Positions 16,876 through 26,425 of a stretch of DNA of 28,709 nucleotides are shown here, one piece after another. The stretch's first letter is position 1. The number at the start of each line of letters is the position of its first letter. The notes under the pieces were generated by a model. That model was not told the DNA's origin. It was given only the letters and a program-made list of their open reading frames with translations, and ran no database searches. The stretch spans positions 1-28,709 of the IMG/VR virus record IMGVR_UViG_3300007523_000058. One strand, written 5' to 3'. This stretch comes from a virus (lineage: Duplodnaviria; Caudoviricetes). Made by a program: the position numbers and the translations under genes.

Positions 16876-16896
16876 AACTATTTTTGTTTTAAGTAG

Positions 16897-17247
16897 TGGA
16901 CTCGGAGGGATTCGAACCCTCGTGCAGTATGATGTTCAGATAAAAGTCATTCACAAGTTTATTTAGTTTCTTCCCAACTAACAAAGCCACAGTGAATTTA
17001 TCGTTATGCGCTGTTTAACGTACCGAACATTTTAATTCTACTCGGAATTCGAATGGTTGTAGAAGTCTGGTTAAGACTCCGTTAGTTTACACTAATTCTT
17101 CTACTGGAGTCCCCACGAGTGCCATAGCATCTTCGAAGGTAAAATTAGAAATTTCTTCTGCATTTATTTGTTTTTTGATGTTTATGTCTTTTCTAGACAA
17201 CTTGCACTCTCACCCAACGGCCATCTGTCGATTACCGTTTCGAGCCC
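16897..17247 (-). ncRNA. ssrA: tmRNA (phage-encoded), 351 nt; predicted tag (A)AEEISNFTFEDAMALVGTPVEELV
   Basis: 5' end GGGCTCG-AAACGGTAATCGAC and 3' end GAGGG-TTCGAAT-CCCTC-CGAGTCC-A give an acceptor stem with the G3:U70 Ala determinant and a canonical T-arm. Helix-2 pairings are present (TTGGGTGAGAGT/ACTTTTATCTGA, GCAAGTT/AACTTGT). The resume context ATAAAT-GCA is at 17161 and the stop at 17087-17089. CCA is not encoded. Confidence 0.92.
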
Positions 17248-18114: not shown

Positions 18115-18397
18115 ATATCTCCAGCACTTTTTGTTTAATCAAATGAACTCTACCCAATATGGTAACATCATCCTTAAAAAACCCTTCACACATAGAAATG
18201 GCCAATGGCCAATCTCCCATATTCACTACTACTCGTATCGTTGAAAGTAAGACTGGTTTATCTATAATAGATACAACCGTATTCGAATTAACATTCAATT
18301 CTAATGCGTCTAAAATTGCAATGTGATATTTCGTTTCCGATTTTCCAATCGATTTATCAAATCCTAAAATCAAAGCTTCAGTCATAGCTTCAGTCAT
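18089..18397 (-). CDS. Hypothetical protein, ~102 aa (start probably the ATG at 18397)
   Basis: TGATG coupling to the def stop codon. Confidence 0.6.
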   Translation of the reverse strand: MTEAMTEALILGFDKSIGKSETKYHIAILDALELNVNSNTVVSIIDKPVLLSTIRVVVNMGDWPLAISMCEGFFKDDVTILGRVHLIKQKVLEIYERQEQIN

Positions 18398-19026
18398 CAC
18401 ACCATCGCCTCCCATCCCGTAGATAGTAGCGATTCTCCTTTCTTATATTTTATAAATTCCATTTCACCATCTGGGCTTTTAAACATATATTTTTTATTGC
18501 GTTCGAATTTCGATGATGTAACTGGTTGCGCGTATTGTCTGTTCTTAATTGTAATACCGTCTAAATGATCTATTTCATGTTGTATCACTACACATTCCAA
18601 AAATCCAAGATCAGACCAAAACGATTCAATATTGTTAGCCCAATTCGAATCATCATCAGGACCGAAGTCCAATTGCCCTTCAAAGTTGTCGGCTTCTACC
18701 GTGACGGATAATCTACGTAATGTTTTGATTGGCTTCCTGAGCGACCTAGGTATCGATAGACATGCTTCCATGTATGAATATTTTTCTTCGGATGCTTCAA
18801 CGATTCTTGGGTTGACTAGGTAGAAAGGTTCTTTTACATTTATCACACAGATGCGCTTGTTTATTCCGAGCTGATTTGCGGATAATCCCAAACCACCGTG
18901 ATTCTTTAATTCTGTAAATAGAGCCGCTGAAATAACTTCTGCTTCTTTTGGTTTGAATTCTGAAACGGCAACTGGTATTGCTAATTTCTTCAAATCTGTA
19001 ACTAATCTATTCTTTGATTTCTTCAT
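18397..19026 (-). CDS. def: Peptide deformylase
   Basis: All three PDF motifs are present: GLGLSANQLG, EACLS (EGCLS variant) and QHEIDHLDG. Confidence 0.93.
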   Translation of the reverse strand: MKKSKNRLVTDLKKLAIPVAVSEFKPKEAEVISAALFTELKNHGGLGLSANQLGINKRICVINVKEPFYLVNPRIVEASEEKYSYMEACLSIPRSLRKPIKTLRRLSVTVEADNFEGQLDFGPDDDSNWANNIESFWSDLGFLECVVIQHEIDHLDGITIKNRQYAQPVTSSKFERNKKYMFKSPDGEMEFIKYKKGESLLSTGWEAMV

Positions 19027-22650: not shown

Positions 22651-23673
22651 TTAAATAATTCCAAATGCGGCATTTGTTTTTTCTCTAAGTAATTCGGCAT
22701 AAACCTTGGGTATAAACTTATTCAAAGCTTTATTGTCCTCTGGTGTTAATGGATATCCATTATTTTCTTCTCGCTCAATATCTTGAACCACTTCGTTTCG
22801 AATATATTGCATGTCTTTCATTTCGTATTCAATTGGATTACCATTTTCCTCTATTTTTTCAATTGCATGTTCAATCCTAGCAATCGTGACAAACTCACAA
22901 AATGGAGAATTAATATCAGCAACAGTAACTTTTACTTTTCTATGTGCTTCTTCTGAATATCGCTCTGTTTTATGTTTGATAATCAAACGATGATCGCTAT
23001 GCCAAATAGCATTAACCAGTAATCTATCTACGGGTTTGATTACTACTCCCTCAATAAACCCGTCACCTGTAACTTCTGATTTCATTGCTTCAACGTCTAG
23101 CGCTAATGCTTCTCGTATTGTATTTTGGGTCGCTACAACCGGTACTCTTGGTACGTTAAAATAATCCATCCAATAGTACGCATCACGGTGGGCGAGATAG
23201 TGAGCATCCTCATCCCGTTCTTTAAATAGAACATCGAAGTACAATACAGACAGCCCGTCCCAAGGGTAAGTAAATCCAGTTTTCAACCCGTTGCCACATA
23301 ATTCTCCAAAGAACACAAACCCCGTGCCTGTTTCTTCGAACTTCATTACGCAAACTCCCAAAAGTTTATCAATTTTATTCCGTGCTGCACTCGTCAATTT
23401 ATTCCAATTTGGATGGGCTGATTGCCCGACCCACGTCGGTTCAGATATATCTCCAGTGTACATTACATAAAATATTTGATTCCGCTGTCCAATAAACGGA
23501 TCGCCGGTTTCGGTTACTCCGACTCTAAAGTTTTCACCGTGAATCTTTTCAGTAACTATACATTTTAAATCAAGTAATTCATTTGTAATATTAGGTCCAA
23601 GCAATTCGCAACTTTTAGAAAAGTTCCTAACATTCATAATTGAATTATATTTCTGATCTTCCTTTGTTTTCAT
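22651..23673 (-). CDS. RNA ligase, Rnl2 family
   Basis: Nucleotidyltransferase motifs: I TEKIHGENF, III FFGELCG, IIIa YFDV, IV EGVVIKP, V IIKHK; helical C-domain. Confidence 0.85.
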   Translation of the reverse strand: MKTKEDQKYNSIMNVRNFSKSCELLGPNITNELLDLKCIVTEKIHGENFRVGVTETGDPFIGQRNQIFYVMYTGDISEPTWVGQSAHPNWNKLTSAARNKIDKLLGVCVMKFEETGTGFVFFGELCGNGLKTGFTYPWDGLSVLYFDVLFKERDEDAHYLAHRDAYYWMDYFNVPRVPVVATQNTIREALALDVEAMKSEVTGDGFIEGVVIKPVDRLLVNAIWHSDHRLIIKHKTERYSEEAHRKVKVTVADINSPFCEFVTIARIEHAIEKIEENGNPIEYEMKDMQYIRNEVVQDIEREENNGYPLTPEDNKALNKFIPKVYAELLREKTNAAFGII

Positions 23674-23924: not shown

Positions 23925-24431
23925 TCATTTAATATTCATAGTTCTCTTTGGGTCACGAGTACCGCATATATGCACCGTCCCATCTAAATCGTATTCAAGA
24001 AACACAACTTCAACATTTGCTTCTTTAAGCATTTGTTTGGATACTCTAAAGTGTTCTTTCCATATTTCATTTGATGTTCCTGCTCCTGTCACACACACTA
24101 TTTTAGAAATACCGGCACTTATGATACCCCTTGCACAATCAGCACAGGGTAAGCCACATGTAAGGTATATGGTACAATCTTTAGTAGATACACCAGTCAA
24201 TGCTGCATTAAAAATAGAATTTCTTTCTGCGTGTTCAAACCAGAAATACTTTTCAGGTCTTTCCTGTCGTTCAGATACATTATCATCAATTCCTCTTGGA
24301 AATGAATTATATCCAGTTGATATAATTTGATGATTCGACCCAACAATAACAGCCCCGATTTGGGTGCTTTCGTCTTTCGATTTTAACTTTACTTGTTCGG
24401 CAATGTTAATAAAATATTGTGTCCAGTCCAT
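23925..24431 (-). CDS. dCMP deaminase (deoxycytidylate deaminase family)
   Basis: SKD..TQIGAVIV, GYNSFPRG, HAERN, PCADC zinc motifs. Confidence 0.92.
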   Translation of the reverse strand: MDWTQYFINIAEQVKLKSKDESTQIGAVIVGSNHQIISTGYNSFPRGIDDNVSERQERPEKYFWFEHAERNSIFNAALTGVSTKDCTIYLTCGLPCADCARGIISAGISKIVCVTGAGTSNEIWKEHFRVSKQMLKEANVEVVFLEYDLDGTVHICGTRDPKRTMNIK

Positions 24432-25226
24432 TTATACTCCTGTAAAGAATTTATTTGAAGAATTACTTCCCCACTTTTGGTAATTATGCCCAAATTCATT
24501 CATATTGAATTCTGGTTGGTCTATTTCAACATACTTTCCATTAGTTGACCTAACTTCAAATAACAAATCTCCTTCTTTTGGATTTTTATTATTGTTGTAA
24601 GCGTCATATGAATTAAGTATGCGTTTACTTTGTTTATTCAATGGGTACATATACCGAAACATTAATCCCCGGATTCTGTCAATACCCTTTGATTCACAAA
24701 AATCATGTGTTAGCCAAAATATCTTTTCTCTTTTCGAAAAGATTGCGTTTTCTTCACATAACTTTCTGGCACTTCTTGGATGTACCTTTTCCTTTGTTTT
24801 CTTATCCATATAAACATCGGTCTTAAAGTACCCCAAATATTTGAAATTGGAGGCTTGATAAACGTATCCACATTTACCCATTATTCCATCAGCCAATGTA
24901 TAGAGAAACTGAATATTCAGATTTGCCTTTATGTATTTAATAAGAAGAGCCATTGCCTGAGACCCAAAATTAGATTGGTTTTTTTCAGGCAGAAAACACA
25001 TCTTTCCAATTTCGAAGTAATCCAGTGTGGTCAGATTGTGATTTGGAAACAATTTATTAATCGTTCCAAGTGGCTGTGTGCCCCATCCTAATGTAACAAC
25101 TCCGACTAATATATCATCTTCATAAAACCCAAGATAATGTTTTGTGAGTCTAGGCAAGATCTTGGAATAATGATATTGATGTATAAACTGAATCGCTGTA
25201 CTTTTCGGAATTTGATGTATAATCAT
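24432..25226 (-). CDS. mom: Mom-family (GNAT-like) DNA adenine hypermodification protein, 264 aa
   Basis: AIQFIHQYHYSK, LGFY....LVGVVTLG, FEIGKMCF, LYTLADG..G.CGYVYQASNFKYLG and C-terminal FRYMYPL match the motif series I recognise for Mu Mom-like proteins. Confidence 0.8.
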   Translation of the reverse strand: MIIHQIPKSTAIQFIHQYHYSKILPRLTKHYLGFYEDDILVGVVTLGWGTQPLGTINKLFPNHNLTTLDYFEIGKMCFLPEKNQSNFGSQAMALLIKYIKANLNIQFLYTLADGIMGKCGYVYQASNFKYLGYFKTDVYMDKKTKEKVHPRSARKLCEENAIFSKREKIFWLTHDFCESKGIDRIRGLMFRYMYPLNKQSKRILNSYDAYNNNKNPKEGDLLFEVRSTNGKYVEIDQPEFNMNEFGHNYQKWGSNSSNKFFTGV

Positions 25227-25240
25227 TATATTTGTTTAAA

Positions 25241-25277
25241 TAGGAAAAGGTAGTAGCCCACCATAGACTACTACCTT
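25241..25277 (-). terminator. Hairpin / probable terminator between tRNA-Gly and the mom-like gene
   Basis: AAGGTAGTAG-TCTATGGTGGG-CTACTACCTT followed by TTCCTATTT (weak U-tract). Confidence 0.6.
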
Positions 25278-25279
25278 CA

Positions 25280-25369
25280 AATCAATCAAATGTTTTTCAT
25301 GAAAAATGAACCAAACCCAACATGTTATTTAACATTAATGTTAAATAATTATTTAACATTTGATTGATT
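25280..25369. repeat. Nested palindrome cassette
   Basis: 15-bp terminal inverted repeats (25280-25294 / 25355-25369), TTTTTCATGAAAAA (25293-25306) and three alternating 12-bp TTATTTAACATT units (25325-25360). Confidence 0.85.
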
Positions 25370-25372
25370 AAG

Positions 25373-25443
25373 AGCGGAAGGATGGGAGCGCGCCATCTTC
25401 TCCTAACTGGTAGCCAGGCGAGTTCTATTAACTCTTCTTCCGC
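25373..25443 (-). tRNA. Atypical tRNA-Gly (anticodon ACC), 71 nt, CCA not encoded
   Basis: GCGGAAG AA GAGT-TAATAGA-ACTC G CCTGG-CTACCAG-TTAGG AGAA GATGG-CGCGCTC-CCATC CTTCCGC T. All four stems pair. Gly identity elements G1-C72, C2-G71, G3-C70, U73 and C35/C36 are present. Confidence 0.8.
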
Positions 25444-25449
25444 AAATTG

Positions 25450-26330
25450 TATACTGAGATTACGTATATTCCATTACTACCTTTGTTCCCGTACCGAGTC
25501 GGTGCGACCCTATCGTTAAGAACGTATCCACATATTCATCGAATATGTCTAGCAACATTGCCGCCTTTTTATAAAGTGAGGCCATTCACTTGTCATAGTA
25601 ACCATTCTCGATTATCGTCCTTCTCCCTACCTTGCGAGCAGTTGGTCCCAGCGATGGGATTGGATGCAGATTTCAATCAACTTACGTCAACCTTGCGAGT
25701 TTCAATAAGCCTTCATTCCATAAATGGTGAAGGATTAGGCAATTTGATTAGTTACTACCGGTGAAGTCTTTGCGTTTCACAGATGGAATTGAACCACCGA
25801 TGTTTTCTGATAAAGAAAATGCTTAACCACTAAGCTATTTTGTGTTTCTACTAAGGCGTGCTTCACCAGTCGCTCCATATCCGTTTGAGATACAGAATAC
25901 AACACGCCTTTATACGTTTCGGGCTACCAACCCTACTGTGCGATATTTCAAGATTACTAGGATTATCTAAATAACCCGTTTACCTTTAATATTGATTTTC
26001 TGCCTTTACATTGGTGATGCTCAGACTTCAATCTACGTCTTACTCTATTAGAGTTCATATGTTGGATTATGCTAGGTGAAGTTCCCACTTCTATTCTGAA
26101 TTCCACTGTTAGCCAAATTCATATCTTTGTCAAAAGACTTAACATACATACTTTTCTCTTTACTTCCCCGTTACAGGAGAACATCTGTCGACCAGATGTA
26201 AAGCGTACGCTTGTTTAGATGAACCAAAGTAAACTCTGGCGGGATAGTGTAGACTACGCCCTTTCAACACCTTGCGATGTCATATTCTTTATCTCCGAAG
26301 AGATTGGATCCCAAACAACCCGATTATCAT
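25450..26330 (-). ncRNA. Large structured ncRNA, GOLLD-like (~880 nt; ends approximate)
   Basis: No minus-strand ORF. Many hairpins: ATCTC-TTCG-GAGAT, three GCAA-capped stems, AAGGCGTG...CACGCCTT, ACATATTC/GAATATGT. It has an internal tRNA relic and an adjacent tRNA. The segments GGCGTGTTGTATTC and 3' TAATCTCAG resemble GOLLD as I recall it. Confidence 0.65.
25778..25844 (-). pseudogene. tRNA-like element embedded in the large ncRNA (nominal anticodon TAT, eroded acceptor stem)
   Basis: TA-GCTT-AGTGGTT-AAGC D-arm, TTTTC-TTTATCA-GAAAA anticodon arm and GGTGG-TTCAATT-CCATC T-arm; the acceptor stem is only CACA/TGTG. Confidence 0.7.
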
Positions 26331-26331
26331 T

Positions 26332-26425
26332 ATTTTAAAGAACTAAAACTTTCGTTCCCTTTTGTGTATATACATATACAACTAATTTCGAAAACGTTCG
26401 TTTTTTATATGAAGTGTTAATGAAT
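26332..26425 (-). promoter_or_regulatory. Promoter/leader of the stable-RNA unit with a boxA-like element
   Basis: ATTCAT-N5-CTTCAT...TTGTATATGTATA (a degenerate copy of the 27.1/27.8 kb elements), then AGTTCTTTAAAAT immediately before the ncRNA. Confidence 0.5.

Follow-up and report, generated by a model that had tools for sequence, protein, structure and literature searches.

A conserved tRNA-Gly-like phage RNA with altered decoding features, probably a glycine carrier for Mom-type DNA modification

The Mom protein of bacteriophage Mu is described, in the accessible text of PMC13219725, as transferring glycine from Gly-tRNAGly to the N6 position of adenine in DNA, which yields 6-NcmdA and protection from restriction. 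The same text states that any of the three Escherichia coli isoacceptors can serve the enzyme, which is believed to recognize chiefly the acceptor end of the tRNA. Mu draws on host tRNAs for this reaction, and the available portions of the Mu Mom papers (PMC13219725; bioRxiv 10.1101/2023.03.24.534169; PDB 8BV8) make no mention of a phage-encoded donor tRNA. Nor was a description of a mom-linked or phage-encoded donor tRNA found in the accessible literature, although an earlier description is possible.

Non-proteogenic tRNA-Gly species have been described in staphylococci, namely NP1-NP3 in Staphylococcus aureus and Ia/Ib in S. epidermidis, which serve as donors for FmhB/FemA/FemB according to the available sections of PMC7826273. 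GOLLD RNAs, with a linker-embedded tRNA and an adjacent tRNA gene as in the locus described below, are known from phage tRNA arrays (RF02032; accessible text of bioRxiv 10.1101/2024.12.08.627333, PMC12990946 and PMC6582537).

The window analyzed here, a stretch of 28,709 nt taken as a whole, is a virus record with baseplate, RNA ligase, dCMP deaminase and tmRNA genes. Contigs of three DNA runs matched the stretch without any difference and may be its source. At 25373..25443 on the minus strand, a rewired tRNA-Gly-like RNA (hereafter the element) was recognized from its cloverleaf fold and a family alignment, scoring 78.5 bits with R1, a family model that has the element itself among its building sequences. 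Read from 25443 to 25373, it comprises an acceptor stem of 7 bp, a D stem of 4 bp, an anticodon stem of 5 bp that includes two G:U pairs, and a T stem of 5 bp, all 21 pairs being intact; the anticodon loop is CT-ACC-AG, the variable loop has 4 nt, and CCA is not encoded. The predicted fold is a cloverleaf of -26.8 kcal/mol (z -2.93) that none of 200 shuffles equaled. In a strict scan, the element was the sole mismatch-free cloverleaf with C35 and C36 in the window, and 100 shuffled windows contained none. Short plus-strand ORFs overlie the element.

Canonical tRNAs carry the invariants U8, G18, U54, U55 and A58. At these positions the element has A8, A18, C54, G55 and C58 instead, and it further combines A9, the D loop TAATAGA, the T loop CGCGCTC with C56, a U51-A63 pair and U73. 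Thus it shares with canonical bacterial tRNA-Gly (RF00005) the cloverleaf, four intact stems, acceptor identity, C35 and C36, U73, G19 and C56, but differs in A8, A18, C54, G55, C58, G38 and A34 and in having no match by ARAGORN defaults or by Rfam at E<=1; an identical copy was called tRNA-Gly(acc) by ARAGORN once the threshold was lowered. The features from which a non-ribosomal role had originally been predicted (intact stems, A8, the D and T loops, U51-A63 and the ACC anticodon) were all verified on re-reading of the minus strand. That prediction is confirmed as to the feature itself and supported as to its interpretation; the strand, the GOLLD setting and the likely Mom client were absent from it.

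The marks of glycine acceptance are retained. The acceptor stem opens with G1-C72, C2-G71 and G3-C70, and the accessible text of PMC7826273 lists acceptor pairs, U73, C35 and C36 as the determinants of glycylation by GlyRS. The GlyRS identity elements (G1-C72, the second acceptor pair, U73, C35 and C36) are all present in the element.

The element begins 7 nt past the end of a GOLLD RNA and 147 nt ahead of a Mom-family gene. The conserved 3' domain of the GOLLD RNA, at 25451..25910 on the minus strand, matched RF02032 over model positions 1-416 with 174.3 bits, above the Rfam gathering score of 150. Its 5' domain and promoter region probably occupy 25911..26400 (minus strand, approximate limits), as judged by similarity to a related phage locus, L012 (79% identity over 989 nt); no long minus-strand ORF was found from 25226 to 26417. 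Within the GOLLD linker, a degenerate tRNA with a UAU anticodon and a short acceptor stem lies at 25777..25844 on the minus strand (RF00005, 40 bits), its fold being weak (z -0.56). The anticodon of the embedded tRNA varies between GOLLD loci, with Lys, Leu, Ile and Arg calls. Downstream of the element, the 3' trailer contains AT-rich nested perfect inverted repeats (25280..25369, minus strand; trailer z -6.65), which are not conserved in L012 and may act as an operator or form another RNA hairpin. A terminator-like hairpin at 25246..25278 (minus strand), conserved in L012, ends the GOLLD-tRNA unit and stands between the element and the window mom gene. The latter encodes a GNAT protein of 264 aa (24432..25226, minus strand) and is followed by a dCMP deaminase gene recognized from database matches (23925..24431, minus strand). 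Farther along the same strand are a phage-encoded tmRNA (16894-17247; Rfam 60.3 bits), which ARAGORN missed, and genes for peptide deformylase (18397-19026) and RNA ligase (22651-23673), both near tmRNA and GOLLD loci.

In L012, the GOLLD RNA, a tRNA-Gly(UCC) and the terminator are all kept, but the dCMP deaminase gene directly follows the terminator; mom is absent from the corresponding place and from the 21%-complete L012 record, so that the adjacency of element and mom in the window may be secondary. The L012 tRNA-Gly(UCC) has A8 and G38 with a normal T loop, and substitutions separating it from the element occur in all four stems with pairing preserved. Another record, G039, likewise has a GOLLD RNA followed by two odd tRNA-Gly. 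This recurrent order, with the element only 7 nt past GOLLD, would suit a processing signal: RNase P would cut the tRNA-like fold, thereby forming the GOLLD 3' end, and the RNA set free would serve no other purpose. We regard that explanation as highly improbable, given that the DNA fetched at six other family loci contains no GOLLD, that other GOLLD genes precede different tRNAs or none, and that processing alone would not preserve glycine acceptor identity, although it may hold as a by-product. What distinguishes the window GOLLD from those described is that its flanking tRNA is a rewired, probably non-decoding tRNA-Gly whose family mostly occurs without GOLLD. A pattern combining the GOLLD 3' end with the acceptor stem matched only an identical copy and three unrelated sequences. 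At seven other GOLLD loci (L006, L007, L011, L013, L016, L019 and L033), the interval separating GOLLD from the following tRNA contains a long closing stem whose arms are conserved and whose interior varies; those searched gave no Rfam match.

A search for homologues and a test of covariation, both proposed in the original prediction, were carried out. The first homologues came from a cloverleaf scan of loci fetched with their neighboring genes. A motif limited to the D arm and anticodon arm matched 9 viral loci and at least 120 metagenome loci (∼230 estimated); among the 120 metagenome loci listed, with 127 motif matches, 77 contained 84 cloverleafs that scored at least 18.5 of 21 and were kept, the other 43 matches (scores of 15 or below) being dropped. 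Forty-eight of these cloverleafs were distinct, 30 with UCC and 18 with ACC anticodons. In the resulting alignment A1 (52 rows), 99.4% of 1092 cells were paired and both partners change in 16 of 21 pairs, figures that lie on the upper side because the filter favors paired rows and the rows are related; the covariation was matched by 0 of 500 shuffles, and slid controls were 41-51% paired. The acceptor stem and discriminator lay outside the search motif, and C35 and C36 were fixed by the search patterns. Within A1, G1-C72 was present in 52/52 rows, C2-G71 in 51/52 and G3-C70 in 52/52, and U73 in 47 of the 48 distinct metagenome members. By blastn of the ncRNA region and of one family member against annotated GenBank phages, no family member was found.

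Among the homologues all four stems covary: the family is covarying, not decaying. The one feature of the window copy that could suggest a decaying pseudogene is its atypical loops, with C54/C58 found in 1/102 members and a D loop 1 nt below the usual form. Set against this are the 21 intact pairs, the pairing-preserving changes relative to L012 in all four stems and the family-wide covariation, and we consider decay extremely improbable.

Features associated with codon reading are, by contrast, altered or lost. Among 102 distinct members taken from alignments A1 and A3, position 34 is free (U in 46, A in 29 and C in 27), as is position 33 (U in 71, G in 14, A in 12 and C in 5), even though about half of the rows came from patterns that fix U33. 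Together with the four-stem covariation, this freedom at positions 33 and 34 alongside retained glycine identity supports the earlier proposal of a non-ribosomal role rather than decay. G55 occurs in 80/102 members, C56 is kept in 100/102 and G19 is invariant in A1 and A3. In the tRNA elbow, G19 pairs with C56. With G55 common and G19 and C56 kept, the elbow appears rewired yet retains these two bases. Seven members of 66-67 nt (L624, L625, L627, L628, L629, L637 and L621), located inside the mom frame, lack the 8-9 connector and have a 6-nt anticodon loop, and so should not decode. Two odd tRNA-Gly copies occur in some carriers. In six mom-linked members (L489, L533, L545, L620, L621 and L650), the 3' strand of the T stem, an EF-Tu contact site, contains an extra or mismatched base.

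Single positions proved less informative. The U51-A63 pair is enriched in the family (61/102 members versus 1/29 canonical tRNA-Gly from the same loci), and the available text of PMC11122139 states that EF-Tu affinity is set by pairs 49-65, 50-64 and 51-63; the same pair also occurs in U8, normal-elbow phage tRNA-Gly (L359 and L361-L363), so that as a mark it is weak on its own. For the A34 anticodon, the accessible text of PMC4928997 describes GlyRS as indifferent to position 34 and a mutated E. coli tRNA-Gly(ACC) as active in elongation (citing Boren et al.); A34 by itself blocks neither charging nor elongation. Each of these two was rejected as a sufficient mark. A8 alone was also rejected as a marker because it is common in tRNA-Gly whose elbow is normal and which show no link to mom. 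Such genes, with UCC or CCC anticodons and an otherwise normal elbow and anticodon loop, lie away from mom in L364-L483 (many Solirubrobacterales, Thermoleophilia and Chloroflexi) and may represent housekeeping tRNAs in which the U8 rule does not apply.

These observations bear on whether the element could be an odd but working decoding tRNA-Gly that tops up glycine translation or evades host anticodon nucleases by way of its changed loop. The window copy retains U33, A37, a 7-nt anticodon loop, G19 and C56, and GGU makes up 138/468 Gly codons in 17 window ORFs; the elongation activity of the mutated E. coli tRNA-Gly(ACC) (PMC4928997, in its available text, citing Boren et al.) points the same way, as do the normal-elbow A8 tRNA-Gly found without mom in many Solirubrobacterales and Chloroflexi genomes and an RNA ligase gene 1.7 kb from the element. 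Decoding nevertheless seems quite unlikely, because 31/102 members have A, G or C at position 33, position 34 varies freely, 6-nt loops occur in some relatives, normal tRNA-Gly genes are often present in carrier phages (several were found to have them), and the overlap with mom would go unexplained.

The genomic link between the family and mom was seen in searches started from either side. Broad A8 tRNA-Gly patterns matched at least 120 genome loci (∼270 estimated) and at least 119 viral loci (∼400 estimated); ∼40 of the listed loci of each kind had flanks of only 300 nt. Among the matches listed, the 67 distinct genome cloverleafs had mom within 1 kb in 14/16 cases with G38 versus 2/51 with A38, and the distinct viral cloverleafs (90 of 94 with enough flank) in 23/47 versus 2/43. 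In all 41 adjacent cases among these matches, the RNA overlapped the mom frame, nearly always at its 3' end. By itself, the T-loop mark showed no association with adjacent mom among viral loci (14/40 versus 11/50 of the matches listed), which is attributable to large phages that hold the RNA apart from mom. In the converse search, 401 genomes of Planctomycetota, the phylum of the Planctomycetales record G100, gave 14 strong Mom matches, from which 13 mom genes remained after the seed and 19 weak matches were left out of the count. Twelve of these 13 genes had the element at the 3' end with a flexible scanner that was written after inspection of those loci (4/13 with a stricter scanner), as compared with 0/440 shuffles; seven of the 12 elements were 66-67 nt long and folded with a 6-nt anticodon loop. 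In a Bacteroidota sample, Mom was present in 3/401 genomes, and one of the three had the element, on the 5' side. ARAGORN at low threshold on Mom loci returned mostly noise.

A quick tree of 111 Mom domains, which carried long-branch warnings, placed overlap-type Moms in no fewer than three distant, supported clades (SH-aLRT 95-100). Six near-complete related phage records, drawn from a set in which 50 of 79 loci were submitted and 46 searched, contained both Mom and the RNA in five cases and neither in one. In a second, author-chosen set, Mom was present in 7/24 marked versus 0/24 unmarked records, and in 5/7 of the near-complete marked records, only one unmarked record being near-complete. 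All of these co-occurrence counts share ancestry and are phylogenetically non-independent. In several large phages (L204, L654-L659, L666 and L670), two or three divergent Mom paralogues stand in tandem, and every one of them has Arg111.

The siting of the RNA inside mom genes of several clades is not predicted if the element is a decoy, charged or uncharged, that titrates anticodon nucleases, tRNA-acetylating toxins or further defenses directed at tRNA-Gly. A decoy would be in keeping with glycine acceptor identity kept under a variable anticodon and with the probably high expression behind GOLLD, and TacT, a GNAT toxin, acts on Gly-tRNAGly according to the available text of PMC13219725. A decoy for anticodon nucleases should, however, mimic the normal loop rather than lose U33, and we judge this reading very unlikely; the decoy or nuclease-escape alternative raised in the original prediction is thus still a rival, but one that leaves the mom link unexplained.

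Charging marks that are kept, codon-reading marks that are changed and proximity to mom together suggest that the family supplies glycine to a Mom-type enzyme. We conclude that the element, a conserved tRNA-shaped phage RNA with GlyRS identity, probably serves a Mom-type enzyme as a non-decoding carrier of glycine, which the enzyme would transfer to adenine in phage DNA.

The identity of the client in the window phage is less clear. The adjacent gene belongs to the Mom family (PF25680, E 1e-51, 175.9 bits; phrog_1384; PDB 8BV8, E 6.5e-8), and its product keeps the equivalents of Mu H58, Y59, S124, D149 and Y159 but has Lys at Mu Arg111 and Ile at Arg151. Both arginines are essential in Mu Mom, and R111K strongly lowers activity, as stated in the accessible text of PMC13219725. 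Lys111 is common to the clade of the window Mom, which in the quick tree is sister to one overlap clade, and Arg151 is missing in most aligned homologues. The RNA was found within 1 kb of a window-type Mom at 0/79 loci fetched. R1 matched in 2/22 records of close relatives of the window Mom, one of them at 42 bits, in the range of normal tRNA-Gly, and in 0/2 near-complete records of these relatives. No such RNA lies near mom in Mu or at four other GenBank Mom loci. R1, run over the entire records of five GenBank Mom phages, produced no scored candidates. Lys111 in the adjacent Mom and the lack of the RNA in close relatives suggest that the true partner may be an unseen paralogue: the client may be either the neighboring enzyme with Lys111 or a paralogue with Arg111 encoded beyond the 28.7-kb record. 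A near-identical record is ∼18% complete. Moreover, since Mu Mom is active with each of the three E. coli isoacceptors, the reaction can proceed without a private tRNA.

The client may also be another type of enzyme. Two of the seven near-complete marked records (G066 and G073) lack PF25680. The tRNA-Gly of G073 is a more distant A8 form, and G066, a T4-like record that is 99% complete, has an ACC, G55 member and no Mom by PF25680 or by a Mom profile built for this analysis. Among 101 of 132 G066 proteins scanned, two DruA-family genes were found (L611:1803-3059 and L611:14628-15725), one of them ∼4 kb upstream of the RNA; with the Mom profile, DruA domains give weak cross-matches (E 4e-6 and 1e-5). 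These data, and the scarcity of the RNA in the Lys111 clade, would fit a non-decoding glycine carrier that serves, instead of a Mom proper, another aminoacyl-tRNA-dependent enzyme such as a DruA/DUF4338-type relative. This is an unlikely account of the element, as no DruA-type gene was present among the 34 window proteins scanned, the G066 DruA protein had no match to a five-row Mom alignment in a profile comparison, and Mom is present in most near-complete carriers.

Among described systems, the staphylococcal non-proteogenic tRNA-Gly are the closest in kind. As far as their accessible description goes, they resemble the element in keeping GlyRS identity, in being encoded by extra genes beside normal tRNA-Gly, in having G for U55 (TGC/TGT for TTC there and CGC here; PMC7826273) and in a proposed partition from EF-Tu to a GNAT-fold glycyl transferase. 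By that description, EF-Tu avoidance was measured for the staphylococcal RNAs, whereas for the element it is predicted from sequence. In addition, the element family carries G38, and A8 in place of U8; its positions 33 and 34 are free, it is linked to mom, often by overlap, and its predicted product is a DNA base modification instead of the peptidoglycan bridge. Common lineage found no support: the window is a virus record, relatives of the element occur in phages, prophage-like regions and diverse bacteria including Planctomycetota, and none of the 34 window proteins matched the Fem family. The best reading is by analogy, that the element would work like a staphylococcal non-proteogenic tRNA-Gly without being of that lineage. 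With respect to Mu, both enzymes are Mom-family GNAT proteins, and the Mu donor is exactly glycyl-tRNAGly according to the available Mu papers; the differences are that Mu uses host tRNAs, has no such RNA by mom, and does not share the Lys111 and Ile151 of the window enzyme.

The following path for the glycine carrier is proposed. The element would be co-transcribed behind GOLLD as far as the terminator-like hairpin, and RNase P together with 3' trimming would free it, the same RNase P cut also trimming the GOLLD 3' end; given the family loci that lack GOLLD and the GOLLD genes beside other tRNAs or none, this trimming would be at most a side role. The host would add CCA, the elbow face probably surviving because G19 and C56 are kept, and host GlyRS would charge the RNA with glycine. 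The altered core, elbow and T stem would keep the charged RNA off EF-Tu and the ribosome, and this avoidance would leave a free Gly-tRNA pool available to Mom late in infection. The family, its marks and its link to mom are observed; processing, charging, EF-Tu avoidance and donor use are predicted.

A broader proposal, which we hold tentatively and at somewhat less than even odds, is that Mom-superfamily GNATs (possibly extending to DruA/DUF4338) and their own glycine carrier RNA, hidden from EF-Tu as well as the ribosome, form a portable DNA-hypermodification module of phages and prophages, in which the RNA lies inside the end of the mom frame in many lineages, is a 66-nt form with a 6-nt loop in some, and is placed on the GOLLD transcript here. 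Where the RNA occupies the end of the mom frame, one transcript would yield either the enzyme or its co-substrate.

If correct, the carrier reading would assign a specific non-translational function to one class of phage tRNA genes, a point relevant to why phages carry tRNAs, and would extend the idea of a private tRNA-Gly pool from staphylococci to DNA modification and counter-defense. It would also imply that an RNA family of wide occurrence escapes standard tRNA finders or is hidden within mom coding sequences. The natural variants of this family, with free positions 33 and 34, 6-nt loops and a rewired elbow that keeps G19 and C56, would separate the needs of GlyRS and Mom from those of the ribosome, and the published coupled Mom assay makes the carrier idea directly testable.
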